Source: a phage | Sequence record: PZ452611.1 | Length of the DNA stretch: 64,000 nucleotides | Strand: one strand, 5' to 3' | Part shown: positions 1,423-16,059 of the stretch, one piece after another | Position numbering within the stretch: position 1 is the stretch's first letter | Layout of the letters: every line of letters begins with the position of its first letter | Notes under the pieces: model-generated | The model's database searches: none | Told to the model about the DNA's origin: nothing | The model's input: only the letters and a program-made list of their open reading frames with translations | Program-made: the position numbers and the translations under genes

Positions 1423-1490
1423 GAGACTGTGATAGCCATGTTTTATGATCTTCCTGTAGCACCACCACCTGTTGAACCTGGAGAACTAAG

Positions 1491-1916
1491 ATGATCTATG
1501 AAATTCCAAAACTGATTCGCGACGATGCCCAAAACGCCCACACCTTTATCATGGGCAAGCGCATGGATATTATTTGTCATAAAGATTTCTGGGAAAGTAG
1601 TTACTTCACAGAGTATTTTGGTAAACTGGACAATGGTCTGCTGATCCAGTTCTACACCGACGAGGAAAACAATATCTGCTGGGAGTTCGAAACTGAAGAT
1701 ATCCATAAACTTCTCACCTTCCTCGGTATTAAGGTTGAGGCCAAGTTTGAAGAAGGTGAGTGCGACGATTGTGGATTCTACGAGGTAACAGATTTCTATC
1801 TTCCGAGTGGTGAGAACCTTTACTATGAAAGCCACTTCGGTAACTCCAATATGCCACAGTGCTGGACTGAGTTTTTTGAAATTGCGGAAGAGGAGCTGGC
1901 ATACCGTGATTATTGA
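1491..1916 (+). CDS. hypothetical protein
   Basis: 141 aa ORF, GGAGA RBS. Confidence 0.5.
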   Translation: MIYEIPKLIRDDAQNAHTFIMGKRMDIICHKDFWESSYFTEYFGKLDNGLLIQFYTDEENNICWEFETEDIHKLLTFLGIKVEAKFEEGECDDCGFYEVTDFYLPSGENLYYESHFGNSNMPQCWTEFFEIAEEELAYRDY

Positions 1917-2364: not shown

Positions 2365-2794
2365 CGACCATCTTCTGAGGTGATATAGTTTCCACAACAA
2401 CTAAGAGAGGAGAGCACTGTGGAGACTAAAATCTTAATTCTTGCTGTGGTAGATACAACCGAAGGAGCTATATTCGAATCTGCAGGAGGGTATTTCTACC
2501 TACCCTACGGAAAAAGAACTGCCGAACCGGGTAAAGATTCAATCATCAAAGTGTTCCCGTGTGCTTTCTGGCTGGAGATTCTGGCATGAAAACCTGCATG
2601 TGTGTGTCCACGCAATCGGATAATCAAGGGCTGTTTGAAGAATATCCAGTAATAGATGGGCCTAGCATATCCTTGTGCGACTTCCTGACTGGGACACGTG
2701 GTGGCTGTACAAAAGTGATGAATATTCAGGCTATTACTTTGCAAAAACATTTACCGGAGAGTTGGTATTTGTTCTGGAGGACTGAGGAGGGCTT

Positions 2795-2989
2795 ATGAGA
2801 AACAAGAAAGAACTTTACTCTGGCGAGTGGATCAACGATCAACAGATTGGAGAGGTAACCTGCTTCCGATGTTTTACCAGGTACAATATTAAAACTGCAC
2901 CAAAAAGTGTTCCAAAGACTGATGGTTATTACATAAAAGAACCTTATTGCCCAAAATGTAAATGCCGATTATATTGGAGTAACCTGTAA
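2795..2989 (+). CDS. small Cys-rich protein (zinc ribbon)
   Basis: 64 aa, CxxC...CxxC, GAGGAGG RBS. Confidence 0.4.
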   Translation: MRNKKELYSGEWINDQQIGEVTCFRCFTRYNIKTAPKSVPKTDGYYIKEPYCPKCKCRLYWSNL

Positions 2990-3251
2990 AAGATTGACAT
3001 CTGAAAACTGCAGTGTATAATATATGCATAAACTAACAGAGAGTGATGTATTATGGTAATTTTTAACCGGGATGGTATCATAGTTAGACAGCACCCGTTC
3101 CTTGAATACTATCAAATTGAGCAATGGTGCTACGGGGATTGCAGTCACTCCTATGGGCAAAGTTGGGGATATCGTACAGTTTTTGAATCCACAGACCTTG
3201 ACAAAGTAAGACAGAAAGTTTTAGAACTTATTAACAACAAGTGAGTATGAT

Positions 3252-3584
3252 ATGGTAACATTAGAAAGACGTAAAGCTATCGCCGCCACACTGGCAGACA
3301 TCTTTTGGGAGTGCAATTTAAAAGATACTAGATATTGTGGCGCATCTGTAGATGCATTGTTCCCACGGCCCACTATTGTTGCAATGGGGAACCTGTTAAA
3401 CGTAGTGTATGGAGCGTGGGACAAAGAAGGTGGATTTTATATCTGGCAACCTGACTACGGGACCTGGAAAGAGGTAAGGGGTGCGGATGACTTTGGGCCT
3501 GCAGTTGCTAAGATGGATGGCTGGGAAATCTATGTTGGAAACGACATGAAGCTGAAGGGCGAGATTGTTTACTGGTTACCTTAA
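3252..3584 (+). CDS. hypothetical protein
   Basis: 110 aa ORF in + early block. Confidence 0.4.
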   Translation: MVTLERRKAIAATLADIFWECNLKDTRYCGASVDALFPRPTIVAMGNLLNVVYGAWDKEGGFYIWQPDYGTWKEVRGADDFGPAVAKMDGWEIYVGNDMKLKGEIVYWLP

Positions 3585-3604
3585 GAAAGTGCAGGAGATA
3601 AAGT

Positions 3605-3850
3605 ATGAACAAAGGGTGGACATTTGTAGACGGCGTTAAAAACATGCCTCTAGGAAAGTATATTGTAGCCATGGCTGATGAGGATGGCAATGTAGATTTC
3701 GGAGCTTGCGAGGTTGTTCTTGCAGGATCTGGTAACTATGTGAGTAAAACCGGGATAATTAACGGTCAGTTCTACTTTGATCACAACCCTGTTGTAGCGT
3801 ATATGGCTATGCCAGAGTTTAAGTTCCCAAAGGAGGATGCAGATGTTTAA
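3605..3850 (+). CDS. hypothetical protein
   Basis: 81 aa ORF, AGGAGA RBS. Confidence 0.45.
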   Translation: MNKGWTFVDGVKNMPLGKYIVAMADEDGNVDFGACEVVLAGSGNYVSKTGIINGQFYFDHNPVVAYMAMPEFKFPKEDADV

Positions 3851-4040
3851 GCTTAAATCTGCATGGAACATCGCTGTGGGTGATGAGATCCGTATCCCCG
3901 GTGGGAAGACCATTATGAAGATATCTCGTATTGAGTACGAAGGTGACCGTGTATTCCACATCTTCGCAGAAGATGGTCGAGAAATTTATATACAGGCAGG
4001 TTCTCACATTTATATCCGTAAGAAAGGGGACGACAAATGA
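3837..4040 (+). CDS. hypothetical protein
   Basis: 67 aa ORF, AGGAGG RBS, 14 nt overlap with upstream gene. Confidence 0.45.
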   Translation: MQMFKLKSAWNIAVGDEIRIPGGKTIMKISRIEYEGDRVFHIFAEDGREIYIQAGSHIYIRKKGDDK

Positions 4041-4366
4041 CAGAGATCATCATTTCAACTGCAGGGTATGTGTTCCTGACAATCATTGCACTGACTATTT
4101 TGGTGACAGTGTATGGGTTTGTTATCCTTCCTATCCTTGAGACATTTAGTTTGTGTCGGTGTTGGAGAAAAGCTTACGGTCCACAACCATGGAAGGACTG
4201 GCCCCACCTAGTGCGCTTAGCGTTCTCTTATGCTTACGATCACTCCAGCAGTGCATGCATAACCGGATACCACGCCCACAACTGGAGCTGGGAAGGGTTG
4301 AGGAAATGGAATGTTACAAAGACCATACCTCTGCGCATGTACAAACCTAAAAACAAAGACAGCTGA
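4037..4366 (+). CDS. hypothetical membrane protein
   Basis: 109 aa, hydrophobic N-terminus, ATGA overlap with upstream stop. Confidence 0.4.
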   Translation: MTEIIISTAGYVFLTIIALTILVTVYGFVILPILETFSLCRCWRKAYGPQPWKDWPHLVRLAFSYAYDHSSSACITGYHAHNWSWEGLRKWNVTKTIPLRMYKPKNKDS

Positions 4367-4384
4367 TACTTGAAAATTCCTGGC

Positions 4385-4960
4385 ATATCAAGTATAAGGG
4401 GGATTTCTAAAATGGATTTCCTCCTTTTGATATTTCACCGGGCTGGATATTTTAAAATTCTTAGAAAATCAGAAAATGGATCGAAAACTAAAATGGATTT
4501 TTTCAGCACAGGCGCGGAAAATTGTGCCAATCTATCTAGCCGTTTGCACCATATTCGAGATCACCGTTCCAGATTTCCCACACATACACACCTCTCCACC
4601 ATACCTTTCTCCACTCACTCTTAGTGATTTATGACGGAAAACCCATCGCTATCAGTGAGTTGCGGTACAATTTTTCCAGTACTCGATCTACTTTTCATCT
4701 CATGGCTTGGATTTTCTGAAAATTTTTCTCGATAAATTTCTCAGTACTCGATCTGTTTTTCGTTTTCTGAATCGGATTTTCTGGAAATCGTTCCGGAGCT
4801 CGACCTGAAATTTTTGGGGACGAAATCGATTTTTCGTTTTCAGAAATGGATTTTTAAAATTTCTATATGGGAATATTTTATGGGATACTGTTTTATAGGA
4901 AATTGTTACGGAGGGTAATTAGCATGCTAACTAAATTTATGAAATGCGAAAAGTTCTCAT
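4385..4960. repeat. ORF-poor repeat region (AAAATGGATTT x4, GGATTTTCTGRAAAT x2, TACTCGATCT x2)
   Basis: short direct repeats read directly in sequence; no convincing RBS-led ORF. Confidence 0.6.
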
Positions 4961-4974
4961 TTAGAATTTTGAAT

Positions 4975-5190
4975 GATAATCATTCTCGTTTGCAGAATAA
5001 CGGGCACCCCCGGTGATTGTCTCCCGGCCCCTACTGCCCCGGCTTGTTATTATAGTAACACACAGGACAAAGAAAGCAAGAAGTTTTTGCATAAATTTTT
5101 AGACGATAATGATAATCGTTCTCATTTTATGCAGCGCCCATCCCCGGTGGTTGTCTCCCCCGTCACCGGTGCCTGCCGTCCTTTCGATAG
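4975..5190. repeat. two ~55 bp direct repeats (GATAATC..TTGCAG..CACCCCCGGTGATTGTCTCCC)
   Basis: copy at 4975-5030 and 5108-5165; related inverted copy at 13801-13850. Confidence 0.55.
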
Positions 5191-5381
5191 GTATATTGTG
5201 CCACCTGGCGGGGCCGCTGTCAACACTTTTCAAAAAATTTTTCTAACCTGATGCGCTAACCGCTGCAACCTGGCGGGGCCAGCCTGGCAGGACCTAACTG
5301 ACCAGGTAGGAGAGAATGAAGGCTTATAATCTGGTGGGCCTGTGCTATAGGATAGGTAACAATTGAAGAGGAGGTACAAAA

Positions 5382-5564
5382 ATGAAAGGTAATATGATCC
5401 CCCTGGAAAATGTAGCGATTAATGACGCTGAGGCTATCGCCCTGGTTGAAAAGGCTATGGCGGGAGCGTTGGAACATAAAGAAGAGTACGAAAAATGGTG
5501 GTTAACCTGGCGGGGGCGGCGGCTGGAGAATTCTGCCCAAAAAATAATTTTAACTAATGGTTGA
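5382..5564 (+). CDS. hypothetical protein
   Basis: 60 aa, GAGGAGG RBS. Confidence 0.5.
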   Translation: MKGNMIPLENVAINDAEAIALVEKAMAGALEHKEEYEKWWLTWRGRRLENSAQKIILTNG

Positions 5565-5643
5565 CAGCTCGGACAGTTCTTGTTATTCTTATCCTCGCAA
5601 GGTGAACAACACCACACTAATTAACAGAGAGGATAAAAAAATC

Positions 5644-5841
5644 ATGAACGCCTACGGAATCAAAGTACGTCGCAGCACTCGCCAGGTGGTCACCGATCAA
5701 ATGGTTTGCCAGGTGGACGTAACCATCAACAACGGGCAAGGCCTTTATAAATTTCGTCGCGGTCATAGCTATACCCTGCAACAGCTTAATCGTTGCGCCC
5801 TGACAAAAGGTCAGATCAACCACTGGTTTAATAAAAAATAA
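5644..5841 (+). CDS. hypothetical protein
   Basis: 65 aa from internal ATG with GAGAGGA RBS (track ORF starts 5557). Confidence 0.5.
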   Translation: MNAYGIKVRRSTRQVVTDQMVCQVDVTINNGQGLYKFRRGHSYTLQQLNRCALTKGQINHWFNKK

Positions 5842-5844
5842 GTA

Positions 5845-5873
5845 TTGACATATAGTCCGACACCAAATACACT
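5845..5873 (+). promoter_or_regulatory. sigma70-like promoter TTGACA-N17-TACACT
   Basis: consensus -35 and near-consensus -10 upstream of gene 5906. Confidence 0.5.
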
Positions 5874-5905
5874 AAAAGCACAAAAGACACTAAGAGGATA
5901 AAATC

Positions 5906-6304
5906 ATGAAAACCACTACCTTTAATTTTGATAATGCAGACTTTTCTTTTTCTGATGTCAAGAACTGCCGCCGTGATCGTGGATTTTACAAGGCTTATAA
6001 TCTGGTGGGCCTGGACGATGACAATAATTTGCACGAAGTAGCTGAGATCCGGTATTATGCCGCCGCCAGTGGGAACACTTACTACTGCGTTTTTTGGATA
6101 CACGACAACAAGAACAATAAGTACGGCTATACTGGCGGCAAGGCAAGCGGTCACGGTTATGATAAAGCTAACGCAGCACTTGAGAGCGCATTAAATGCCA
6201 TGGGGATCACTGCCGACGGCTGGATCTACGAAGAAGAGTTTTTGTCGGCACTTGCTGACCACCTAGGCTATAAAAAGCACATTGTAACATGCGCCCACGA
6301 ATAA
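5906..6304 (+). CDS. hypothetical protein
   Basis: 132 aa, AAGAGGA RBS. Confidence 0.55.
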   Translation: MKTTTFNFDNADFSFSDVKNCRRDRGFYKAYNLVGLDDDNNLHEVAEIRYYAAASGNTYYCVFWIHDNKNNKYGYTGGKASGHGYDKANAALESALNAMGITADGWIYEEEFLSALADHLGYKKHIVTCAHE

Positions 6305-6310
6305 AAATCA

Positions 6311-6338
6311 TTGACACGCTGCAAAATTTAAGTAAACT
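6311..6338 (+). promoter_or_regulatory. sigma70-like promoter TTGACA-N16-TAAACT
   Basis: followed by 5'UTR hairpin GGCGGGAAtgttTTCCCGCC (6349-6367) and RBS. Confidence 0.5.
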
Positions 6339-6386
6339 AGACACAAAAGGCGGGAATGTTTCCCGCCAGCACAAAGGAAAAAGATC

Positions 6387-6791
6387 ATGAATAAGAACGT
6401 ACGCCGCATCATGAACGAGTTGGCAAACGATGAAAAAATTATTGACATGCATTTGATCAACATTTGCCGCCGTTGTGTAACATATAACAACCGCGCCGCA
6501 AAAGCGCGTGAGATGAACGCAAAAGGCACCTTAAAGCCATTCCAGGTGGTGGTAAAGGCCATTAAAGATGTAACTAATACGGCAAACCAGGTACAGGGGA
6601 ACACCAACGAGAGTACCAATATTGATCCGGCTTACATCATGAAACGGATCCGGACCTGCAAGAACAAAGAGCAAGTGTATAATGTCATAGACTGGTTGGA
6701 TTCTATGGGCGATGTGGTTTACAATAGGTTTTCTGCAGCTATCGAGATCCAGCTTGACAGGTTGGACGGTAAAGTACTAAAAACTTACTAA
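6387..6791 (+). CDS. hypothetical protein
   Basis: 134 aa, RBS AAAGGAAAAAG. Confidence 0.55.
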   Translation: MNKNVRRIMNELANDEKIIDMHLINICRRCVTYNNRAAKAREMNAKGTLKPFQVVVKAIKDVTNTANQVQGNTNESTNIDPAYIMKRIRTCKNKEQVYNVIDWLDSMGDVVYNRFSAAIEIQLDRLDGKVLKTY

Positions 6792-6793
6792 GT

Positions 6794-6838
6794 TTATTTT
6801 TAGATGGCCTTGACTCCAGGGCCATCGATAAAGTAAAC
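6794..6838. promoter_or_regulatory. conserved palindromic cassette TTTTTAGATGGCCTTGACT-CAGGGCCATC-ATAAAGTAAAC (copy 1)
   Basis: near-identical 45 bp element also at 7424-7470 and 11166-11210; inverted repeat GATGGCC/GGCCATC flanks TTGACT. Confidence 0.6.
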
Positions 6839-6871
6839 TAATCCCAGTTAAGCGAAAAAGGAGGCTTGAAG

Positions 6872-6991
6872 ATGAGCACTACACGCCAACACACAAAGGT
6901 AACGATTATCGTTTGCATCATTGGTTACATCCTGGCGCAAATGTTGATGGGTAGCGCCAATGATTTCGCAAAATTTTTCTTAGACTTTTAA
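6872..6991 (+). CDS. small hydrophobic peptide (39 aa)
   Basis: AAAGGAGG RBS then ATG; single predicted TM; below track length cutoff. Confidence 0.4.
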   Translation: MSTTRQHTKVTIIVCIIGYILAQMLMGSANDFAKFFLDF

Positions 6992-7071
6992 TTGACAAGC
7001 TAACTTAAATCAGTATAATACTAAGCACATAAACGGGAAAACTTCCCAGAACACCAAAAGGAGAAAACATT

Positions 7072-7422
7072 ATGAATACTTCCATCACTATGACCGCCGA
7101 AGAAAAAGCCCTGCAGATCGCCGCTCTGAAAAAACAGATTGCAGAACTTGAAGACAAGATCGACAATTTTGAAATCGACGAAGACAAATACGACGATAAA
7201 TATGATGAATGGTTGGACGAGATCTACGGCGAAATTATGATCGGAAACATTTCTTTTCTTCCGTCGCGTATCCTCAAGGAGCTAGATCCTATCGCTTACC
7301 GCTGCGGATTTAGCGACTACATCGACAGCCTGGATATTGAGGACGATGAAGAATACCAGGAATTACAGACAGAGCTTGAAGAAGTGAAAGAAGAGCTTGC
7401 AGAACTGGAAGAAAACGAGTAA
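7072..7422 (+). CDS. acidic coiled-coil protein
   Basis: 116 aa, AAAGGAGAAAACATTATG. Confidence 0.55.
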   Translation: MNTSITMTAEEKALQIAALKKQIAELEDKIDNFEIDEDKYDDKYDEWLDEIYGEIMIGNISFLPSRILKELDPIAYRCGFSDYIDSLDIEDDEEYQELQTELEEVKEELAELEENE

Positions 7423-7423
7423 A

Positions 7424-7470
7424 TTTATTTTTAGATGGCCTTGACTTCAGGGCCATCAATAAAGTAAACT
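7424..7470. promoter_or_regulatory. conserved palindromic cassette (copy 2)
   Basis: same 45 bp element as 6794-6838. Confidence 0.6.
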
Positions 7471-7511
7471 TTAGACTGTTAACACTTAACCAATACAGAG
7501 GAGTTAAAACC

Positions 7512-7757
7512 ATGGCCGCACTAATTACCAAATATTATGCCCCTACCAACACCAAAAGCGCCCGTATCATGGTAAAAGGCTTCGGACGTAAAAAGGTGTA
7601 CACCTGGGATTATTCCCTAGACATGGAAGACAACTACACCAACGCGATGACAGATTTTATTAATGAGCTGAACACGCGGATCTTGACAAATTATAAAATT
7701 ACCGATATTGCCTATATAGGGGAAGGCGGGATCTGTTTTGTCGGTATCGTCAAATAA
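7512..7757 (+). CDS. hypothetical protein
   Basis: 81 aa, GAGGAG RBS. Confidence 0.5.
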   Translation: MAALITKYYAPTNTKSARIMVKGFGRKKVYTWDYSLDMEDNYTNAMTDFINELNTRILTNYKITDIAYIGEGGICFVGIVK

Positions 7758-7833
7758 ACTGTTTTTTCGGTGGTCCTGGTAGCAGGGCCATCTATAAAGA
7801 TAGTTTATCAGCACAATGAAAGGAGAAAGTAAC

Positions 7834-8187
7834 ATGATCAGCGGGGCAAGTTTTATTATTGGCGCTATTGCTACGGCTTTAATTGTAAACAAGATCCAAT
7901 CCAAAAACGAAAAAGAGAGCAACGCGCTTACAGAATACCCATTTTGGGTATTCAACGACAATGAAGACTACATTATCAAGTACAAGGATGAGAAAGGGGA
8001 CCAGGTAACACCGAGACCGATCCCAGCTTACAAGATGCAAGAAACATTATACCGCTTAAAGGCTGGCGGCGCAAAAATCGTAGACTTTTGGGGATATGAT
8101 TGCAAGGATCAGGAGACTATAAAACGTCGTATCCGGGCGATTCAGGCAAATATTGAGATCAGTAAAGGGGGCGTTTATGAAAATTAA
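7834..8187 (+). CDS. hypothetical protein with N-terminal TM
   Basis: start moved to ATG 7834 after AAAGGAGAAAG RBS (track 7816). Confidence 0.5.
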   Translation: MISGASFIIGAIATALIVNKIQSKNEKESNALTEYPFWVFNDNEDYIIKYKDEKGDQVTPRPIPAYKMQETLYRLKAGGAKIVDFWGYDCKDQETIKRRIRAIQANIEISKGGVYEN

Positions 8188-8374
8188 TTTCGAAAAAATT
8201 GTAAAGCGCCCCCACGATTCCGAAGAGCTGCCGGAACGCCGCCAGCGTAACAATAAACTGAATAAACCGAAAAGGTTCGGGAAGATCTGGAGAAATCACT
8301 ATGATCGCAAATTACCGGGCCTGCTTTTGGAACGTGAACGACAGGCGGAACGATACCGCCACAAAGACAAATAG
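8177..8374 (+). CDS. small basic protein
   Basis: Arg/Lys-rich 65 aa; internal ATG after AAAGGGGG. Confidence 0.4.
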   Translation: MKINFEKIVKRPHDSEELPERRQRNNKLNKPKRFGKIWRNHYDRKLPGLLLERERQAERYRHKDK

Positions 8375-8382
8375 CAACCAAC

Positions 8383-8410
8383 GCCCCGCCATTGTGCGGG
8401 GCTTTTTATT
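8383..8410 (+). terminator. rho-independent terminator
   Basis: GCCCCGCC-attgt-GCGGGGC followed by TTTTT. Confidence 0.7.
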
Positions 8411-8555
8411 TCTATCCCGCCGATAGCGCCCCTGGTTGGCCCTACAAGCGCCATAAAGGCCCCTACCTATGCAATCCCCTTTCTTAACCTGAAAACAGCG
8501 TCTAGGGCCGTTTTATGGCGTTAAAAATATTATTGACAGTAATTCTATTTAAAGC

Positions 8556-8584
8556 TTGACACCTTGGGATAGTCCGGATATACT
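8556..8584 (+). promoter_or_regulatory. sigma70-like promoter TTGACA-N17-TATACT
   Basis: second TTGACA at 8533; upstream of gene 8620. Confidence 0.5.
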
Positions 8585-8619
8585 AACCACATCAAAGCAA
8601 GAAGGAAGGAGTAAACGCC

Positions 8620-8880
8620 ATGCGTAAATTAAAAAATTTTGATAAAGTAGATGTTGTCCTGAATAATTTTTACTACTGCAATAATAAAGCCGTTTGGTGG
8701 CGTGATAGTTCCACCGATAAAGTTAAAGCGCGCTTTCTCCAAGGGCACTGGCAAGGCCGCCCAGTGATTAAAATCTCGGGGCAATTGGTAGCGTTTAAAA
8801 ATTGCCGCCGTGTTGATGACGTTGAAGAGATTCTAAACATTTTACGCCACAATAATTTAAAAAATAGTGTTGACAAGTAA
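8620..8880 (+). CDS. hypothetical protein
   Basis: 86 aa, GGAAGGAG RBS. Confidence 0.5.
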   Translation: MRKLKNFDKVDVVLNNFYYCNNKAVWWRDSSTDKVKARFLQGHWQGRPVIKISGQLVAFKNCRRVDDVEEILNILRHNNLKNSVDK

Positions 8881-8897
8881 GTCTCAATAAGTATACT
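8870..8897 (+). promoter_or_regulatory. sigma70-like promoter TTGACA-N16-TATACT
   Basis: followed by hairpin GGCGGGAAaacTTCCCGCC (8908-8926). Confidence 0.5.
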
Positions 8898-8954
8898 TAA
8901 ACACACAGGCGGGAAAACTTCCCGCCACTAACAAAGAAAATAGGAGAAAATATC

Positions 8955-9578
8955 ATGACCACCGTTAACATTACCACAGGTTACAATTTAGCTTTCGACG
9001 TGCTGACCGACGAACAAAAAGAAAAAGCCGTTGAAATGGTCCGAGAAAGAGAAGAACACAGCGGGGATAACTTTTTTGCAGAAAGTGTAATTGAAGACTA
9101 TAAAGAATATGTCTTTCCAGAGTATGGCCTTGAAGATACCAAGGTACATTGGTCCGGCTTTTGGTGCCAGGGTGACGGCGCGTCAATCAGTGCGGAAAAC
9201 GTGGATTTAGAAAAATTCTTGCGTAAAGTAAAGGCCCTGACCAAGTTCCGATCAATTCGTCACTTGTTCGGCACAATGCACGATGGCGAGCTATCCGCAA
9301 GTGTTGAGCGTGATCCATATAGCCGCTATAGTCACGAAAACACTGTAAGCGGGTACATCGATACTACATGGCTAGACCTGACCGCCAAACAAGAAAATAA
9401 AGTGGAAGATCTGGAAGAGCTGATCACCGAGACGGTACGGGAGCTATCCCGCAAGGTTTACGTAGACCTGGAGGAGGCCTATCTAGAACAGTTCACTACC
9501 GAAAACCTGATCGGCCTTATTGAGGCCAATGATTGGCGGTTTGATGTGGATGAATATGGAGAGATGAGTTTTTCATAA
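8955..9578 (+). CDS. hypothetical protein
   Basis: 207 aa, TAGGAGAAAATATCATG. Confidence 0.6.
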   Translation: MTTVNITTGYNLAFDVLTDEQKEKAVEMVREREEHSGDNFFAESVIEDYKEYVFPEYGLEDTKVHWSGFWCQGDGASISAENVDLEKFLRKVKALTKFRSIRHLFGTMHDGELSASVERDPYSRYSHENTVSGYIDTTWLDLTAKQENKVEDLEELITETVRELSRKVYVDLEEAYLEQFTTENLIGLIEANDWRFDVDEYGEMSFS

Positions 9579-9667
9579 ATAAAGTGTTGCAATAATCTAA
9601 AAACCTGCTATATTAAAACTCAAGGGGCAAGACGTTTGCCCCCACACAAAACAAAGAGGAAAACATC

Positions 9668-10048
9668 ATGAAAAACACTACCAAAGCTATTTACACCGTT
9701 ATGTTTAACCTGGTTACCTTTCGCGAGGATATGAAAGATCTTCCGCGTGAAACAGTGTGCGACCATATCGAAAACTATCGCAAACTAATCAAAGAGTTGC
9801 CTTTAAAACGTGATCAGTATGCGGCTAACGCCATGCTTAATGCCATGATCAAAAAGATGATCCAGTGTGATTTAATTCTAGCCTATGATTATGCGGGTGG
9901 TCGTTTTGCAGTATACAATCAGCCCGTGCCCGGTATGGGCACCATCGAAGAATTGCACGCGCTCAATCTAAAACAAGATGTGTGGGATAGTATGCCCCGC
10001 GTGGTGGTGTGGGCAGAAAGCGGGAAGATTTACGGCGATAGTTTTTAA
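9668..10048 (+). CDS. hypothetical protein
   Basis: 126 aa, AAAGAGGAAAACATCATG. Confidence 0.55.
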   Translation: MKNTTKAIYTVMFNLVTFREDMKDLPRETVCDHIENYRKLIKELPLKRDQYAANAMLNAMIKKMIQCDLILAYDYAGGRFAVYNQPVPGMGTIEELHALNLKQDVWDSMPRVVVWAESGKIYGDSF

Positions 10049-10112
10049 TCAGGTAACAGGCGGCATATTTGCCGCCTTATTGTTAAACAAAACTGCAAAA
10101 GAGGTACATAGA

Positions 10113-10484
10113 ATGGAATTTATTATTTTGGCTGTATTGGTTGCCTTGTTTAACGCCTGGATCGCTGGCAAGATGGGCAGATCCGCCTTTTTATGGTTTA
10201 TTATATCTATTTTCCTGGGGGTGGTTGCAACTATTGTATTGGTTATCCTTGCAATTGTTGACAAGGGGAATAATAGAAAGGGTAAAGTATTTTCAGACCT
10301 GTACGACGCTCAAACGTTTGTCAACGCCTATTATAGTGATCTTCCAGTCTCCCTACGCTGCAGCTTGGCACAACAGGTTTTTGATGAGGCTAAAACCAGA
10401 GATCAAGCCCATGAGATATGTTTAACTGAGGCGGATCGCCTATTTGAGAGGAATAGAAAATATGTGGGCCAACCGTTTAAATAA
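10113..10484 (+). CDS. membrane protein (2 TM)
   Basis: internal ATG with AAAAGAGG RBS; two hydrophobic helices. Confidence 0.5.
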   Translation: MEFIILAVLVALFNAWIAGKMGRSAFLWFIISIFLGVVATIVLVILAIVDKGNNRKGKVFSDLYDAQTFVNAYYSDLPVSLRCSLAQQVFDEAKTRDQAHEICLTEADRLFERNRKYVGQPFK

Positions 10485-10707
10485 TGCCACGTTAATTAAT
10501 CCCTTTAGTGAAGATTTGAAGCCAGCCGCCTGGCGTGACGGATTCAATAACGAACGCTTTATTTTCAGGCCTGATCTTGAGGAATTTTATAACAATGGAT
10601 CGAACAACAGCGGAGATAATTTTTCTTGTGGTGTGTGTCGTGATAGGACTCCTGGGGGCCATTGTAGATCGCGTCACTACTACCAGAAGGAAAGGGGGAG
10701 ACGATGA
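10444..10707 (+). CDS. hypothetical protein
   Basis: ORF ending in ATGA overlap with next small gene; true start possibly ATG 10462. Confidence 0.3.
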   Translation: MRGIENMWANRLNNATLINPFSEDLKPAAWRDGFNNERFIFRPDLEEFYNNGSNNSGDNFSCGVCRDRTPGGHCRSRHYYQKERGRR

Positions 10708-10823
10708 CAACCAAGGATAAGCCATGCACCGATAAGGTGCGCCGCGTTATGGTATGGCTTGAGATTATCGCCCTTGAAATATTGCTAGGCGTAGGGATGT
10801 ACTTTATCGCTGTAAGTAACTAA
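10704..10823 (+). CDS. small membrane peptide (39 aa)
   Basis: AAAGGGGGAG RBS; hydrophobic core; followed by terminator. Confidence 0.4.
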   Translation: MTTKDKPCTDKVRRVMVWLEIIALEILLGVGMYFIAVSN

Positions 10824-10827
10824 GAAC

Positions 10828-10856
10828 GGCCCCCGATCATGGGGGCCTATCTTTTA
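10828..10856 (+). terminator. rho-independent terminator
   Basis: GGCCCCC-gatcat-GGGGGCC followed by T-rich run. Confidence 0.65.
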
Positions 10857-10963
10857 AAAAAAAATTTTCTTCCGGGGTGTTGCAATCCGGTCCGGAATGT
10901 GGATAATAACAATCAACGGGGAGCTAATCCCCACCACCACAAAAACCAGAAAGGAGAAACAAA

Positions 10964-11164
10964 ATGAGCAACAATATCCGCGTTATTAACTTCAAAAAAG
11001 AAGAAAAAATTGCCGTGCTGATTGACGGTCAAGAAATCTTCAAGGGCGACTATGAAGATCATCAAACGGCGATTAGTATCACTCGCGTGATTGGTTACCA
11101 TAATTTCTACCCCCAAGGCGCTGAGGCAGCAGTTAAACGAATCAAAGAGATTGTAGGCCTGTAA
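10964..11164 (+). CDS. hypothetical protein
   Basis: 66 aa, AAAGGAGAAACAAAATG. Confidence 0.5.
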   Translation: MSNNIRVINFKKEEKIAVLIDGQEIFKGDYEDHQTAISITRVIGYHNFYPQGAEAAVKRIKEIVGL

Positions 11165-11165
11165 A

Positions 11166-11210
11166 ATTTATTTTTAGATGGCCTTGACTTCAGGGCCATC
11201 AATAAAGTAA
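11166..11210. promoter_or_regulatory. conserved palindromic cassette (copy 3)
   Basis: same 45 bp element as 6794-6838. Confidence 0.6.
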
Positions 11211-11255
11211 ATTTAAACCCTGTTAAAATAATCAGTGCAAAAAGGAGTAATGATC

Positions 11256-11555
11256 ATGTTTATACCCGCCAATAATCTTTATTTCTTTGATGGTCAGATC
11301 GTAGACGGTGTGGAAGTGGAGATCACTGGGTGCCCTGGTGGTCAGGCTATGACTTTTCGGAATAATGCCTTTGATGATTCTCGTATCGTTATGAGAATGG
11401 AAGTTACAAAGCTGGACGACAAGAAAACGCTCATTGACTATTCCGTGAAAGATCATCCAGACTACCACATGATCTATGGTGATTTGTGTATTGTTGACCG
11501 TGACAAGGTGGGCGGCATTGTGATCGCTATTGTGAACGATGTTTTCTCTGAATAA
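11256..11555 (+). CDS. hypothetical protein
   Basis: AAAAGGAG RBS then ATG 11256 (track 11235). Confidence 0.5.
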   Translation: MFIPANNLYFFDGQIVDGVEVEITGCPGGQAMTFRNNAFDDSRIVMRMEVTKLDDKKTLIDYSVKDHPDYHMIYGDLCIVDRDKVGGIVIAIVNDVFSE

Positions 11556-11779
11556 TTCCGGCAAATGATGCAAAATAAGGCCCCTAGCAGGGCCTGCAGC
11601 GATATAATCACATAAAGGCTATGCGGTTGCATGGCCTTTATTATTTTAGCGTTACAGCGTCCCCAAGGCGCTTAAAAAATTTTTAAAGAAGTACTTGCAT
11701 CAAGTCCTACAATATGGATAATAGGACGTGTCAGGGGGGCGGCCCCCAATCATTAACCGGATAGATAGGAGTTAAAATC

Positions 11780-12064
11780 ATGGCTATTGTCACCGTTGGC
11801 GATGTAGTGGAAATGGAAGCAAAATACTTAAAAGCGGGTATGCATATCCTACGGAATGATCAAGAATTGTTATTAACGATGGTAGACTATAATCCCGGCC
11901 AGGATTATCCAAGCATCGACATACTTTTTGAGTATGTTGATGAAGAATTGAAAGAGGATGAGGCTTATCAGGGTGAATTCTGCAATTTCTTTTGCCCTGA
12001 TGAGGTTGTAAAAGTTATCTATCAACCTGGCGTACCTTTCCCGCTGCACGCTATCAATAAATAA
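11780..12064 (+). CDS. hypothetical protein
   Basis: 94 aa, TAGGAG RBS. Confidence 0.5.
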   Translation: MAIVTVGDVVEMEAKYLKAGMHILRNDQELLLTMVDYNPGQDYPSIDILFEYVDEELKEDEAYQGEFCNFFCPDEVVKVIYQPGVPFPLHAINK

Positions 12065-12118
12065 ACCTGGCGGGGCCGAAAAGGCCCCAATTATGAAAAT
12101 AAAGAGAGGTAAATCATC

Positions 12119-12352
12119 ATGATGGAACAAATTAAACGCGCTGAGGCTATTAATGGCAATGTGATCTATTTTGTCAGCAAAAACGAAAAAGGCGTACCAT
12201 ATGCGGCGGTAATAGTACAACCTGACGGCGATTATTGGTTTACTGTATACGGATCTTATTCTTTCGGGCGTCCGGTTCATGATAGAATTTTGAAAGTAGC
12301 GAATCCGACCGGGAAAAATATCACAGCAGAAAAATTTTTTGAAAATAGTTGA
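12119..12352 (+). CDS. hypothetical protein
   Basis: 77 aa, AAAGAGAGG RBS. Confidence 0.5.
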   Translation: MMEQIKRAEAINGNVIYFVSKNEKGVPYAAVIVQPDGDYWFTVYGSYSFGRPVHDRILKVANPTGKNITAEKFFENS

Positions 12353-12428
12353 CATGACCATATAAGACTGTAATATATAAATCAAAGGGGGGCAACAAGC
12401 CCCACCAACCACAAAGAGGATAAAAATC

Positions 12429-12608
12429 ATGGCTATTATTGCAAAGACTGAGATCGTAGGCTTAGATTCTATTCTCCTCGCATATGAGGAAGCTATAGAA
12501 ATGTATGTGGTTTCCTATGGTGAATATATCCGTGAATATAAATCTATTGATCTGGCTTTTGAATGTTATATTCGCCAGGTTAATAAAGCGTACGATGATT
12601 ATCGTTAA
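12429..12608 (+). CDS. hypothetical small protein (59 aa)
   Basis: AAAGAGGATAAAAATCATG; below track cutoff. Confidence 0.4.
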   Translation: MAIIAKTEIVGLDSILLAYEEAIEMYVVSYGEYIREYKSIDLAFECYIRQVNKAYDDYR

Positions 12609-12698
12609 AATAGCTTGACAACAAACAACCATCTAACAAAGCATAATACATAAGGCGGTGGAATGGTCCGCCACCTGGAACAAGAAGAGGAAAACAAG

Positions 12699-12803
12699 AT
12701 GAAACAGAAATTAATTGATGCGGTGATCCTGGTTATTGCCCTGGGTATTGGCCTGATTGCAACCATGTCTAATATGATCTTGTCTTCCAACGGTATCGGG
12801 TGA
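12699..12803 (+). CDS. small membrane peptide (34 aa)
   Basis: AAGAAGAGGAAAACAAGATG; hydrophobic. Confidence 0.35.
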   Translation: MKQKLIDAVILVIALGIGLIATMSNMILSSNGIG

Positions 12804-12812
12804 GGTTGGCAA

Positions 12813-13028
12813 ATGATCACTAACAAAACAGGCAAAACAGAATTTTTACGCAACTTACAGATCGGCAAGCCTGAGATCTGGTATTGCACTAAAACACCAC
12901 GTGACGAAATGAAAGACTTCACCGCCACGCTGCAACGGGTAAAGATATCCATCACGCAGAAAAAGGCCTTATTAGTGGTGGAAGGTGAGATCCCCCAAAC
13001 CGTTGTTATAGTTGAGCGTACAGCATAG
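12813..13028 (+). CDS. hypothetical protein
   Basis: 71 aa ORF. Confidence 0.4.
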   Translation: MITNKTGKTEFLRNLQIGKPEIWYCTKTPRDEMKDFTATLQRVKISITQKKALLVVEGEIPQTVVIVERTA

Positions 13029-13119
13029 TTTAATTTATACCGATACCCGAAAATTAACCAACAAAGCATAAACAGGCGGTTACCGCCGCCTTAAACGTAG
13101 CAGAAAGAGGATAGACACA

Positions 13120-13404
13120 ATGAAAAAGATGATCGCAGTGGTTGCCCTGGTTGTTGGACTTAATGCGCCTGTAATGGCTAAAGAGCTGGCAAAAGAGGTT
13201 AATCTAACGGATATTCATGCCGTCAATCAAATCGGGGTTACTTATCGCTTATGCCTTGCCGCTAAAACTTTTAATGACGGTACAACAGAGTACTACGGAT
13301 TCGAGGGTATCCGGTGCGGTGAGCTTGCTCGCGACCTTAAGGAAGATTCAGACCTGGAGGATCTGCCCATAACCGTGAACGGGAAAACTTACGTGAACCG
13401 TTAA
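13120..13404 (+). CDS. secreted protein (signal peptide)
   Basis: MKKMIAVVALVVGLNAPVMA signal-like N-terminus; AAAGAGGA RBS. Confidence 0.5.
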   Translation: MKKMIAVVALVVGLNAPVMAKELAKEVNLTDIHAVNQIGVTYRLCLAAKTFNDGTTEYYGFEGIRCGELARDLKEDSDLEDLPITVNGKTYVNR

Positions 13405-13406
13405 CC

Positions 13407-13541
13407 ATGAAAAAGATAATCATCACCTTGGGGATTGTGGTGGCAATATTGGCGCTCTTCCCCCTTATGGTTAGGTATGTGCTGATCAGTGTTATTCTAG
13501 TGGTCAGCGATCTGGTGTTATATATTAACTCATTGTTTTAG
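13407..13541 (+). CDS. small membrane peptide (44 aa)
   Basis: hydrophobic ORF directly after previous stop. Confidence 0.35.
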   Translation: MKKIIITLGIVVAILALFPLMVRYVLISVILVVSDLVLYINSLF

Positions 13542-13549
13542 GTGCGATA

Positions 13550-13741
13550 ATGACCACTGATGAAGCTGTAAAAGTGTTGGCGGTATTGAGATATCATAAT
13601 CAAACAAAGGTTATAAACGATCCTGATTATGTTGACTCAAAGCGTGAAGATGAGACATTGACCGCAATATGGATTATTCAAGAATTGCTAAAGCGCATGA
13701 CAGAGAAAAACCGACCGGACTACATAGGCGAAAAAATATAA
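13550..13741 (+). CDS. hypothetical protein
   Basis: 63 aa ORF. Confidence 0.45.
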   Translation: MTTDEAVKVLAVLRYHNQTKVINDPDYVDSKREDETLTAIWIIQELLKRMTEKNRPDYIGEKI

Positions 13742-13756
13742 TATTTATAAACTACA

Positions 13757-13787
13757 AAACAGGGCTTGCAATGGTCCTGTTTTTTGT
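13757..13787 (+). terminator. putative rho-independent terminator
   Basis: ACAGG-loop-CCTGT followed by TTTTTT. Confidence 0.45.
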
Positions 13788-13800
13788 TATACTTATTCCA

Positions 13801-13850
13801 CGGCAGGCACCTGGCGACGGGGGGAGACAATCACCGGGGGGTGCCTGTCA
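13801..13850. repeat. inverted copy of GGAGACAATCACCGGGGG element, internally palindromic
   Basis: reverse complement of the 4995-5022 / 5143-5190 motif. Confidence 0.55.
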
Positions 13851-13953
13851 TATAAGAACTATAAAAACCGTTGACATCTGCCAGGGGGTGGGGTAACATT
13901 TATCTTGAAGGGGCAAAAGTGCCCACACAACAACCAGAAGAGAGGAAAACATT

Positions 13954-14226
13954 ATGTCAAGCTGGATTAATCAAGAAGTCGAATCACGTTTTAATGCTAT
14001 TTGGGATCTCATCGAAAAAGAGGACGGAACATCAAGCCCTTACCTCAATAATCTTGAATTCCATTTTGTGGAAGCGATGAACGCAGAACATGATCACGAA
14101 GGTGGTGCGGACGAGTTCGCTAAAAGGTATGGCTTCAACAATGCCAACGAAATGATCGAGGCGGTTGTACTCCAGGCTGAGGAAGATTATCAATTAAAAA
14201 CGCTTGAATTCTGCCGCCGCAAGTAA
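13954..14226 (+). CDS. hypothetical protein
   Basis: 90 aa, AGAGAGGAAAACATTATG. Confidence 0.5.
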   Translation: MSSWINQEVESRFNAIWDLIEKEDGTSSPYLNNLEFHFVEAMNAEHDHEGGADEFAKRYGFNNANEMIEAVVLQAEEDYQLKTLEFCRRK

Positions 14227-14286
14227 TAAGATAATGACACGGGCCAAAAGGCCCACTAATCAGAACCACACAAAGAGAGAAAGAAA

Positions 14287-14505
14287 ATGACAACCCGTAA
14301 AATTAAAGTTGTTTGCATTGAATCTACTGGGGGCGCTTTTGTAGTTGGTCAGGAATATAATGCGGTTTTAATGGGTACGGATTGGAAGGTTAAAGGCCTT
14401 AATGGTTACGAGTACGGCACTACTTGCGGCTTGCGTGGTCGAATCGGATACGTGAGTTTAGACAATAAAGAAAAATTTGTTTTCGACACCCTTGTGAGTA
14501 AATAG
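14287..14505 (+). CDS. hypothetical protein
   Basis: 72 aa, AAAGAGAGAAAG RBS. Confidence 0.5.
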   Translation: MTTRKIKVVCIESTGGAFVVGQEYNAVLMGTDWKVKGLNGYEYGTTCGLRGRIGYVSLDNKEKFVFDTLVSK

Positions 14506-14582
14506 CATGAATTGCTAAAGACTGATCTGCGAACTGCTGTATTATCAACTAATCAAAACGAACCACATAAAGAGGAAACATC

Positions 14583-14846
14583 ATGAAACGTCTGGATCAG
14601 CTTAAATTAGTTCAGTACATGGCCTACAGAATTCTTGAAGTCCAAAAAGGTAGCAAAAAAGAGGTTTGCGAGAAAGCTTATAAGATCTTTACCCGCAAAA
14701 AAGATGACTGGATGCTACGCCAGACCAAAAAGGCTGACATCTTGGGGTACCTGGAAGAAGAGATCCGACTTGAAGAGCAAGAAGAGATCCGCCGCAGTGA
14801 GGCAGATTATCAGGCAGCTTGGGAAAACTGGATGAGTAACAAATAA
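14583..14846 (+). CDS. hypothetical protein
   Basis: 87 aa, AAAGAGGAAACATCATG. Confidence 0.5.
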   Translation: MKRLDQLKLVQYMAYRILEVQKGSKKEVCEKAYKIFTRKKDDWMLRQTKKADILGYLEEEIRLEEQEEIRRSEADYQAAWENWMSNK

Positions 14847-14992
14847 TACAACAAGTTGCACGATCAGGGGGGCAATAAAGCCCCTTGATCACATAAAAAT
14901 TATGCTATCCTTGGTTGACAAGGATCGGCAGTTTTGCTATATTCTTTTTTGAAGGGAAGTTGTAAGAAAATTAACTAAGAGGTAAAAACACC

Positions 14993-15412
14993 ATGAACAT
15001 TAAATCTAATAATCCGGCATATAGCTTTGATAACGCTTTTTGTCACGGTCCGGCGGCGAAAGGATTCGAAATCGATGGTAAACTAATTATTGTCAATGTT
15101 GACGGGGAAGAGGTTGCAGTATATCCGGTGGCAGACGTTAAAAGCCGTTTGCAATGCCGCATGGATGTTACCGCCTACCAGCTTGATCCGGTCCGCATAG
15201 TTGCCCTGGTCCTGGAGGAAGAGATCAAAGCCATGCATCATAGCAATAAGTTTATCGGTGACGCGCAAGATAATATGAAGGTATGCCGCTATAAAGTTAA
15301 TGAAGTGCTTAAAGAATACGGCTTCAAAGATCTGATGATCAAGCGTGATGAAAAATTCCGTTATCGTAACGACCTGGCAAATCGAATCTATGAAATATAC
15401 GAATCATTATAA
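14993..15412 (+). CDS. hypothetical protein
   Basis: 139 aa, TAAGAGG RBS; last gene of + early block. Confidence 0.55.
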   Translation: MNIKSNNPAYSFDNAFCHGPAAKGFEIDGKLIIVNVDGEEVAVYPVADVKSRLQCRMDVTAYQLDPVRIVALVLEEEIKAMHHSNKFIGDAQDNMKVCRYKVNEVLKEYGFKDLMIKRDEKFRYRNDLANRIYEIYESL

Positions 15413-15429
15413 TTTCTTAACTAAACTAT

Positions 15430-15459
15430 CAGGGGCTTTAAAAGGCCCCTTTCTTTTGT
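15430..15459 (+). terminator. rho-independent terminator
   Basis: AGGGGC-ttttaaaa-GGCCCCT followed by TTCTTTTG. Confidence 0.7.
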
Positions 15460-16059
15460 CTGTATTTCTCCTACCACAAACGGCCCAGCCTGGCAAGTGG
15501 AATAATTGACTAGCCAGCAATTACCAACACTGTACAAATATACATATAAAATAACTATTGCATAATCTTTCATCTTGTGGTAGCAGGGCCATTTTTACAC
15601 GTTTTCCTTCCAAAATTGCACGTAATGCAGCTATTGCATAAAATTTAACCTGATGCACATCTTCAATAGCTTGTCAACAACTAAAAATCTTTATAAGTCA
15701 TACACTTACATAACCACAAAAGCGTGTTCTACGTGAAAAATCGAGTATAACTATAGCCGCCAGATCTCAGAATTTACGTACGCTCACCATTCTATAGTCT
15801 GCTAAGTATTTATTCCAACCATAGAATAACAGAATAGTCAATACCTGCATAAAATAATTATTCGTGTAAACTGCATAACATAAATCAGCCGGGGTGTCAA
15901 CATTTTTCGTAAACGGCTCGAAATTATCACTGTGAGCTATCATAAACAGAGAAATCTTTAGTCGTCTAATGTTTACTGTACGTTACTATACTAACTGGAA
16001 TCATTAGATGACTAATAAAAAGATAAGAAATCATTAACAATGCAATTGTTTTATTCATA

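Follow-up and report, generated by a model that had tools for sequence, protein, structure and literature searches.

Short GC-rich hairpins occur in the 5' untranslated regions of many early genes in a 64,000-nucleotide (nt) stretch of phage DNA (sequence record PZ452611.1). This whole stretch is referred to below as the window, its positions are used throughout, and features lie on the + strand unless indicated otherwise. In the typical arrangement, the hairpin sits between the -10 box of a promoter and the Shine-Dalgarno (SD) sequence of a small gene, at a near-constant distance from the former. We put at about 0.5 the probability that the hairpins are 5'-terminal, mRNA-stabilizing stem-loops carried within cassettes resembling the PeSL elements of T4-like phages.

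The 8-kb region that harbors the hairpins was 100% identical to Escherichia phage rV5 (DQ832317 / NC_011041), the + strand of the window corresponding to the - strand of that record. Positions 1-15415 comprise the distal part of a long early transcription unit that extends from ORF214 to ORF164 (ORF, open reading frame), with all genes on the + strand; 3' of this unit lie a stretch annotated as non-coding and then - strand genes. Nearly all genes between 6300 and 14300 encode small hypothetical proteins. The paper on the rV5 genome reports 33 promoters of the sigma70 type along with 20 terminators and leaves the hairpins unmentioned (PMC3606486).

Hairpin Cassettes of the Early Region

An exhaustive stem-loop search recovered all ten hairpins that had been listed in a preliminary description of the window, with coordinates displaced by 0-6 nt, and added an eleventh of the same kind (11735-11747, GGGGGcggCCCCC) that was absent from the first list. 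The stems are 5-9 base pairs (bp) long, and the folding energies range from -4.0 kcal/mol for the hairpin at 7035, clearly the weakest, to -13.1 kcal/mol for those at 6349 and 8908. The 3' end of the hairpin precedes the start codon by 19-32 nt, which is close to the 15-30 nt stated previously. The downstream ORFs within 6300-14300 encode hypothetical proteins of 40-207 amino acids (aa). In a full cassette, an AT-rich stretch lies 5' of the -35 box; a spacer of 16-18 nt leads to the -10 box, and about 10 nt rich in C and A separate this box from the hairpin. An A/C-rich leader connects the hairpin to a strong SD sequence, and the ATG comes 7-9 nt further on.

This association exceeded chance. 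Among the 18 promoter-like sites that lie between genes on the + strand in 1-15500, 5 had hairpins of -7 kcal/mol or better that started at most 18 nt past the -10 box, as compared with 0.33 ± 0.57 (maximum 2) in 100 runs with dinucleotide shuffles of the same leaders.

The cassette of ORF194 (6311-6389) consists of TTGACA (6311-6316), TAAACT (6333-6338), the hairpin GGCGGGAA-tgt-TTCCCGCC (6349-6367; 8 bp, loop TGT, -13.1 kcal/mol) with a predicted 5' overhang of 4 nt, the leader AGCACA, the SD sequence AAGG, and ATG at 6387. The same arms, GGCGGGAA-aac-TTCCCGCC, recur at 8908-8926 (-13.1 kcal/mol) in the cassette of ORF185 (8870-8957; TTGACA-16-TATACT, the figure giving the spacer length; ATG 8955). 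The ORF192 cassette (6992-7074) carries a promoter identical to the consensus (TTGACA-16-TATAAT, 12/12), and its hairpin GGGAA-aac-TTCCC (7035-7047; 5 bp, -4.0 kcal/mol) begins 15 nt past the -10 box and is followed by ATG 7072. Promoter matches of 9/12 are present in the cassettes of ORF184 (9587-9670; TTGCAA-16-TATATT, hairpin 9624-9642 of -11.1 kcal/mol, leader CACACAAAACAA, ATG 9668) and ORF179 (10880-10966; TTGCAA-16-GATAAT, hairpin 10918-10932 of -7.8 kcal/mol, ATG 10964). The ORF174 cassette (12349-12431) combines TTGACA-16-TAATAT with a hairpin at 12387/12389-12403 (about -9 to -12 kcal/mol) and ATG 12429, and that of ORF167 (13871-13956) combines TTGACA-17-TAACAT with a hairpin at 13911-13924 (-6.8 kcal/mol), the leader ACACAACAACCAGA, and ATG 13954.

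Many of the hairpins had been described as lying downstream of a TTGACA-N17-TAnACT promoter. This was borne out for seven of the ten, which follow promoters matching in at least 9 of 12 positions (6311, 6992, 8870, 9587, 10880, 12349, and 13871), whereas the promoters of the hairpins at 12654, 13074, and 14241 were unconvincing. The hairpin GGCGG-tggaatggt-CCGCC (12654-12672, extended form 12653-12676; cassette 12654-12701 with leader and SD) is preceded by a sole TTGACA at 12615, which is separated by a 21-nt spacer from CATAAT; the hairpin AGGCGGTGGaatagCCCACCGCCT of the phi92 group is related to it. The hairpin at 13074-13091 (-11.0 kcal/mol; cassette 13074-13122) is followed by a leader, an SD sequence, and ATG 13120. 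In the ORF166 cassette (14230-14289), GATAAT (14230-14235) lacks a convincing -35 box; the hairpin (14241-14254, -9.2 kcal/mol) is followed by the leader ACTAATCAGAACCACACAAAGAG and ATG 14287, and this leader is repeated 5' of ORF165 (14548-14582). The eleventh hairpin belongs to the ORF176 cassette (11695-11782), which has a weak -35 box (TTGCAT), GATAAT at 11718-11723, and ATG 11780.

The annotated start codon of rV5 ORF173 (ATG 12663) falls within the loop of the hairpin at 12654-12672. The in-frame ATG at 12699, located behind AGAGGAAAA, is more likely the start, and the protein would then comprise 34 aa and not 46.

Position of the Hairpins and Composition of the Leaders

The first paired base followed the end of the -10 box at a distance of 8-11 nt in rV5 (n = 7), 6-11 nt in phage phi92 (n = 12), and 8-12 nt in Cronobacter phage CR8 (n = 9), with a median of 10 nt in each of them. 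Four more phages of the phi92/phAPEC8 group possessed a hairpin at 46 of 62 strong promoters with SD-ATG, and in 42 of these 46 cassettes the distance was 9-11 nt. The spacing is thus near-constant despite differing intervening sequence, and most indels between orthologues fell between the hairpin and the SD sequence. Escherichia coli RNA polymerase normally starts about 7 nt past the -10 hexamer. With a spacing of 8-12 nt, the hairpin is therefore predicted to begin at +1 to +7. On the same assumption of a start 7 nt past the -10 box, the predicted 5' overhang was 0-6 nt for ten cassettes and 3-6 nt at the well-supported promoters. When the predicted rV5 transcripts were folded, the hairpin formed with a probability of about 1, and the SD sequence was mostly unpaired.

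The rV5 leaders between hairpin and SD sequence consisted of 60% A, 29% C, 9% G, and 2% T, as compared with 29% T in the window as a whole. In the 8 nt past the hairpin, T occurred 0.7 times on average in rV5 and about 1.0-1.2 times in phi92, CR8, and the four other phages. The absence of a T-run implies that the hairpins are not intrinsic terminators on the gene strand, just as the preliminary description had held for most of them, and T-runs were equally lacking in the relatives. A terminator scan listed these hairpins on the - strand only. The early promoters without a hairpin at 2361-2419, 2994-3053, 5845-5906, and 8556-8620 carry the same CA-rich, T-poor leader. The hairpin hence looks like an optional insert in a shared leader design.

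Conservation of Pairing

Eighteen intergenic hairpins were compared between orthologous loci of 11 genomes, namely nine annotated Vequintavirus relatives and two IMG/VR contigs, the only two close relatives from that source. Distinct substitutions per column were rarest in stems (0.177), intermediate in flanks (0.297), and most frequent in loops (0.637). Refolding of each distinct variant showed that the hairpin was retained almost everywhere. In phage MiataMamis, GGCGGTTGA-tac-TCAGCCGCC takes the place of the hairpin corresponding to 6349, and two or three pairs are altered on both sides. Orthologues of the hairpin at 11735 have G-C, G.T, or A-T at a single stem position and loops of 3 to 8 nt; in two orthologues of the hairpin at 9624, the inner stem and the loop changed together and the hairpin persisted. 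The loop of the hairpin at 10918 is variable. Phage Gotham has lost the hairpin at 12389 and that of a repeat located at 6803 in rV5, and such occasional losses indicate that the element is not essential.

Alignment-based measures of covariation failed, and refolding of each variant was relied on instead. A sequence-based alignment of 39 paralogous copies failed to place the arms in register and gave three consensus pairs only. MAFFT followed by RNAalifold on ten variants of the hairpin at 11735 and six of that at 6349 also mis-registered the arms because of loop indels. A count of pair states in fixed columns, with 9 G.U versus 12 A.C events, contained several artefacts of the same mis-registration, and a strand-neutral scan of whole loci for wobble pairs was diluted by chance hairpins in coding DNA. 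The previous argument that compensatory changes reveal selection on structure is backed by the orthologues, whereas the differences between paralogues do not amount to strict covariation. Stems changing less than loops or flanks, together with some compensatory changes, support the view that the hairpins are selected as structures. The observation in the preliminary description was thus sound, and its central reading of a selected structure that is no terminator was right.

With respect to strand, 45 of 96 distinct orthologue variants had a sense hairpin whose stability exceeded that of the antisense hairpin by at least 1 kcal/mol, the opposite held for 10, and G.U pairs favored the sense strand by 46 to 24. 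The sense hairpin was more stable in 5 cases and the antisense in 1 in phi92, and the corresponding numbers were 10 and 3 among the 26 unique hairpins of the four other phages. These comparisons support pairing within one strand, and for this hairpin class the pairing likely takes place in sense-strand RNA.

Occurrence in Other Phages

The phages phi92, CR8, Klebsiella phage KaOmega, ASO2A, tuntematon, muut, and VEcB were examined in addition. The early region of phi92 (Stephanstirmvirinae) contains a more regular version of the cassette, in which TTGACA-N17-TAnnnT is followed by (a)tcacata, GGCGGGAAAtggTTTCCCGCC or GGGCGGCAatagTGCCGCTC, an A-rich leader, AGAG, and ATG. BLAST with one phi92 cassette retrieved 151 phage records; among these, Certrevirus and Klebsiella/Enterobacter phages match this cassette from the -10 box onward. 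Related hairpins link the groups, as seen for GGCGGGAA..TTCCCGCC of rV5 and for GGCGGTGGAATGG.. of rV5 versus AGCGGTGGAATAG.. of the phi92 group, and a loose consensus across phages reads CACATAGGGCGGGAAT..CCCGC.A.AA. The loop motif AATGG / AATAG / AGTGG is kept in phi92, ASO2A, tuntematon, muut, and VEcB while the stems differ, which may indicate either that the copies share a recent ancestor or that a factor recognizes the motif. A search of Rfam gave one match at chance level only (E = 0.49, far below the gathering score).

Most promoters of CR8 and KaOmega bear either a spacer hairpin of the form GGGCC...GGCCC or one that straddles the -10 box, and in several cassettes such a hairpin co-occurs with the downstream one. 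The downstream hairpin is hence a separate element and does not follow from a rule of one hairpin per gap. In the records of phages EdH4 (650-668, 4312-4329, and 7001-7015 of that genome) and ASO2A (e.g. 4161-4195), these hairpins, located in the interval between promoter and gene, are annotated as rho-independent terminators, which is probably an artefact of the annotation tool because the U-tract is missing.

About 20 records labeled "Campylobacter phage" (MG0656xx) were approximately 93% identical to rV5 across the region. They probably represent coliphages carried in a Campylobacter phage set, or mislabeled entries.

PeSL Cassettes and Gene Gain and Loss

PeSLs were described in the T4-like phages RB49 and phi1, where the cassettes number about 50 in each genome (Arbiol et al. 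2010, PMC2839356). Each contains a consensus sigma70 promoter, a stem-loop rich in G-runs followed by C-runs, and the SD sequence and ATG of an ORFan; five subclasses differ in where the stem-loop lies, which in one subclass is downstream of the -10 box (PMC2839356). In the authors' view, the stem-loop terminates or attenuates transcription, and homologous exchange takes place at the cassette (PMC2839356). PeSLs have been reported in RB49/phi1, T4/PST, and KVP40/nt-1 (PMC2839356; Comeau et al. 2014, PMC4122927), and our literature search found them described for T4-like phages only. RB49-like examples that we read in sequence show ttgacaCGGGGAgaaaTCCCCGtataat, or GGGGGTagtaatatACCCCC over the -10 box, and then CA-rich leaders. 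Few cassettes are present in the RB49-like region that surrounds the rV5 ORF206 homologue, and RB49 was not among the matches listed by tblastn with ORF167.

Gene content of the rV5 region varies among relatives. ORF166 (14287-14505) is absent from most of them and is flanked by two leader copies of about 30 nt, ACTAATCA..AACCACA(C/T)AAAGAG (14227-14292 and 14506-14588). The ends of this indel have 26-36 nt of leader in common, and phages nom and JES2013 carry a chimeric single leader. One further relative, the contig designated L013, shows a deletion from copy 1 to copy 2 of a 47-nt repeat (see below). Most other break points are intergenic, in a region of which 23% is intergenic DNA. By these comparisons, the cassettes are junctions of early gene gain and loss, and they match what would be expected of the rV5-group counterpart of PeSL elements. 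This kind of element is already known from T4-like phages; what is new is that in phages of the rV5, phi92, and Certrevirus types the downstream hairpin dominates and is exactly placed.

Other Hairpins and Terminators of the Window

A second class of hairpins belongs to a 47-nt repeat (ATTTATTTTTAGATGGCCTTGACTTCAGGGCCATCAATAAAGTAAACT) with near-identical copies at 6792-6840, 7424-7471, and 11165-11214. Its 10-bp hairpin, GATGGCC-ttgactccag-GGCCATC in copy 1 (6803-6826) and located at 7434-7457 and 11177-11200 in the others, holds a -35-like TTGACT in the loop region, and TAAACT follows 18 nt downstream in copy 1. This hairpin could not be transcribed from its own promoter. It is more stable in the sense (-17.7 to -17.8 kcal/mol) than in the antisense orientation (-13.6 to -13.8 kcal/mol), as its G.U pairs function on the sense strand only. 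In a diverged copy (7758-7806; hairpin 7769-7792, GGTGGTCCTG-gtag-CAGGGCCATC, two G.U pairs) the values are -17.8 and -7.7 kcal/mol.

The intercistronic hairpin GGGGCC-gaaaa-GGCCCC (12072-12088), 8 nt past the ORF176 stop codon and 30 nt before ATG 12119, has neither a promoter nor a T-run. The hairpin AGGCGGCA-tatt-TGCCGCCT (10058-10077), 35 nt before ATG 10113, is likewise promoterless; with its T-rich tail (TATTGTT) it is terminator-like, and the EdH4 record annotates it as a terminator. A further hairpin, GATCAGGGGG-gcaataaag-CCCCTTGATC (14862-14890), is situated after ORF165 and 5' of promoter P164 (14915-14943); its sense strand is more stable in nearly all orthologues. Terminators consisting of a hairpin and a T-run are interspersed among the early cassettes at 665-687, 8383-8402, 10828-10847, 11612-11641, 13756-13783, and 15431-15450, and the one at 10828 appears bidirectional.

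On the - strand, promoters likewise carry stem-loops, which lie over the -35 box (22011-21980 and 33222-33187), in the spacer (34246-34216), and just past the -10 box (23870-23850, before a RaiA-like gene, and 40834-40812); a stem-loop upstream of a promoter is located at 31860.

Some observations concern the record itself. A few indels of 1-5 nt distinguish the window from GenBank rV5 (about 4037, 10964, 11349, and 21003; 8001 versus 8004 nt across the query). Relative to the record, they render several tiny annotated ORFs untranslatable and fuse ORF177 and ORF178 into one ORF (11256-11555). Furthermore, 8177-8374 encodes a small, strongly basic early protein (MKINFEKIVKRPHDSEELPERRQRNNKLNKPKRFGKIWRNHYDRKLPGLLLERERQAERYRHKDK), a possible nucleic acid binder.

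Proposed Function and Its Alternatives

From the spacing and the host machinery, we infer both the transcription start sites and a stabilizing effect on mRNA decay. Each early mRNA would carry a GC-rich stem-loop at 0-6 nt from its 5' triphosphate end. Because RppH and RNase E require 5' ends that are single-stranded, secondary structure at this end stabilizes mRNA (review PMC3997798), and for this reason a base-paired 5' end would deny RppH and the 5' sensor of RNase E their substrate and prolong the life of the mRNA. The U-poor, unstructured leader would leave the ribosome site open and offer few RNase E sites. In read-through transcripts, the hairpin would come to lie between cistrons, where it could block 3' exonucleases, and the cassettes, being repeated sequence, also provide the points at which crossovers add or remove early genes. 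Among the roles proposed in the preliminary description, 5'-end protection fits best, given the constant spacing of about 10 nt and the predicted overhang of 0-6 nt, and it is plausible though unproven.

A purpose for such protection can be suggested speculatively. The rV5 protein gp11 has been reported as a homologue of Srd (PMC3606486), and T4 Srd stimulates RNase E against host mRNA according to work cited in PMC4980113. A more far-reaching version, which we regard as doubtful, would make the hairpin and U-free leader a portable "self" mark that resists Srd-stimulated RNase E attack, is common to at least three genera (Vequintavirus, the phi92/phAPEC8 group, and Certrevirus), and in the phi92 group is possibly read by a protein through its AAUGG-type loop.

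Several observations weigh against a function in 5'-end stabilization. The hairpins at 12072, 13074, 14241, and 10058 are without a recognizable promoter and cannot be 5'-terminal unless the end is created by processing. Conversely, five good rV5 promoters (2361, 2994, 5845, 8556, and 14915) and the four cassettes of the second class lack a hairpin in the 5' untranslated region, which makes it optional. The hairpin at 7035 is weak, and its predicted overhang is 9 nt. Many stem-loops of RB49-like phages and Certrevirus lie inside the promoter and thus outside its own transcript, so that part of the PeSL function must lie elsewhere. The strand evidence is mixed. The sense-strand bias among the orthologue variants stems mainly from the second hairpin class and the hairpins at 14862 and 11735; the listed hairpins of rV5 are perfect palindromes and give no strand signal. 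In the Certrevirus GCGAC...GCCGC family, all copies share an A.C mismatch, which may be a single inherited change, and the antisense hairpin is more stable. In E. coli, only about 10% of the mRNAs are affected when RppH is lost, and direct entry of RNase E is possible (PMC3997798). Our literature search found no mapped start sites or transcriptome for rV5, the Vequintavirinae, or the phi92 group.

Among the alternatives, it is unlikely that the hairpins attenuate or terminate transcription arriving from the upstream cassette, each gene being expressed mainly from its own promoter. Such a role would suit their intergenic location (almost every gap in 6300-15000 holds one), the terminator annotations in EdH4 and ASO2A, and the finding that a PeSL stem-loop placed between a strong promoter and lacZ cut expression about as much as the rrnB terminator (PMC2839356). 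However, the U-tract is missing, with 0.7-1.2 T per 8 nt past the hairpin in rV5, phi92, and CR8, and the 2% T of the rV5 leaders resembles avoidance of a terminator tail; intrinsic termination on the sense strand was rejected on these grounds. True hairpin and T-run terminators exist separately in the same region (8383, 10828, 11612, 13756, and 15431), the exact placement at 10 nt would be unnecessary, and an attenuator at this position would also act on transcripts of its own promoter. Quite unlikely is a role mainly as recombination sequences (PeSL-type exchange or gene conversion) with little effect of the hairpin on expression. The junctions of gain and loss do fall in repeated cassette parts with 26-47 nt in common, related hairpins (GGCGGGAA.., GGCGGTGGAAT..) stand beside unrelated genes in rV5, the phi92 group, and Certrevirus, and single phages such as Gotham have lost a hairpin. 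Yet recombination needs homology and not self-complementarity, whereas the stems are three to four times better conserved than the loops and their changes are compensated. Moreover, the rV5 copies are too divergent for good homologous exchange, and both junctions lie in the leader and the 47-nt repeat rather than in the listed hairpins. That the hairpins terminate antisense transcription is very unlikely, although on the - strand they are followed by a T/G-rich run, the 8 nt 5' of the hairpin average 4.3 A, seven hairpins were listed on that strand by the scan (e.g. GGCGGGAAACATTCCCGCC TTTTGTGT), and in the Certrevirus GCGAC family the antisense RNA is the more stable form. Positions 1-15400 lack - strand genes and have only weak promoter-like sites, one terminator per gene would be far beyond need, the A-rich stretch doubles as the start-site region of the promoter, and the phi92 group and the rV5 orthologue variants favor the sense strand.

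Recognition of the RNA by a protein, either in nut/boxB-like antitermination or at a translational operator, appears highly improbable, and this proposal of the preliminary description was not upheld. The idea is kept alive by one observation, the conserved AAUGG/AAUAG loop of the phi92 group; the motif AATGG / AATAG / AGTGG is kept on differing stems in the phi92/phAPEC8 group and Certrevirus, and recent common descent would explain it in the phi92 group. Some rV5 hairpins are of boxB size, e.g. that at 12072, and a small, very basic early protein is encoded at 8177-8374. Against this, the rV5 loops have no common motif (TGT, AAC, GACGT, GCTAA, CGG, AACAA, AAAG, AAAA), loops of orthologues change freely (TGT to ACA; 3 to 8 nt), the only shared upstream motif is the CA-rich start region, and no Rfam family was matched. 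A nut site was rejected because loops differ between copies and orthologues, as do the stems between copies, and because no boxA-like partner is present. Least probable of all is an element acting at the DNA level. It would be either a palindrome bound by a dimeric repressor and centered near +13, as lacO is, or a GC-rich start of the transcribed sequence that adjusts promoter escape. The rV5 copies are indeed perfect inverted repeats at a fixed distance from the -10 box, and early promoters must be shut off later in infection. But the half-sites differ between copies, and the arms are 3-9 nt apart, a distance that also varies between orthologues and that a dimeric binder would not tolerate; a dimer operator was rejected for this combination. 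In addition, changes preserve complementarity and not sequence, and the G.T "pairs" of the phi92 group are meaningful for single strands only. A site for RNase III consists of a duplex of roughly two helical turns. With stems of only 5-9 bp, processing by RNase III was rejected as well.

Should the hairpins prove to be stabilizers, the compact and regular cassette of consensus promoter, 5' hairpin, unstructured U-poor leader, and strong SD sequence in rV5-like, phi92-like, and Certrevirus phages could provide reusable expression parts for E. coli, and the recurring GenBank annotation of a "rho-independent terminator" between promoter and gene would be corrected. PeSL-type modular shuffling would then extend beyond T4-like phages to therapeutic-type coliphages with early regions full of uncharacterized genes. 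The system would also offer a concrete test of how phage mRNA escapes a host mRNA decay that some phages accelerate.

Comparison with Known Systems

The closest functional precedents for a 5'-terminal stabilizer are the stem-loops of ompA and papA (Emory 1992, Bouvet and Belasco 1992, as cited in PMC3997798). The rV5 hairpins share with them a short stable hairpin, predicted in our case, near the 5' triphosphate end, an open ribosome site, and the same host species. They differ in that the 5' ends are predicted only, that the element is repeated across many phage genes, and that it also lies between cistrons of possible read-through transcripts. Synthetic 5' hairpins are used for mRNA stabilization. 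Intrinsic terminators are likewise GC-rich intergenic hairpins of similar size, but the rV5 hairpins have no U-tract on the gene strand and are sited between a promoter and its gene. The rV5 hairpins resemble boxB of lambdoid phages, in which a short GC stem closes an A-rich loop close to the 5' end in early transcripts; in contrast to nut/boxB sites, they occur once per gene and not per operon and have neither a conserved loop nor a boxA.

Another close counterpart of the rV5 cassettes is the PeSL. In both, AT-rich DNA precedes a consensus sigma70 promoter, next to which lies a stable stem-loop, often made up of a G-run and then a C-run; a CA-rich leader, an SD sequence, and the ATG of a small ORFan complete the unit. 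Both are present in many copies, clustered where the early region is variable, and the indels that distinguish related phages join at the cassettes. The stem-loops of the window occupy every published position. Nevertheless, rV5 is not T4-like but belongs to the Vequintavirinae, and its copies of this hairpin class are heterogeneous whereas PeSL copies share about 100 bp. The terminator or attenuator reading published for PeSLs needs a U-tract, which is absent from rV5-type tails. In RB49-like phages, the commonest positions of the stem-loop are in the interval from the -35 box to the -10 box or over the latter, whereas in rV5 and the phi92 group the dominant position is 10 nt past the -10 box, inside the promoter's own transcript.

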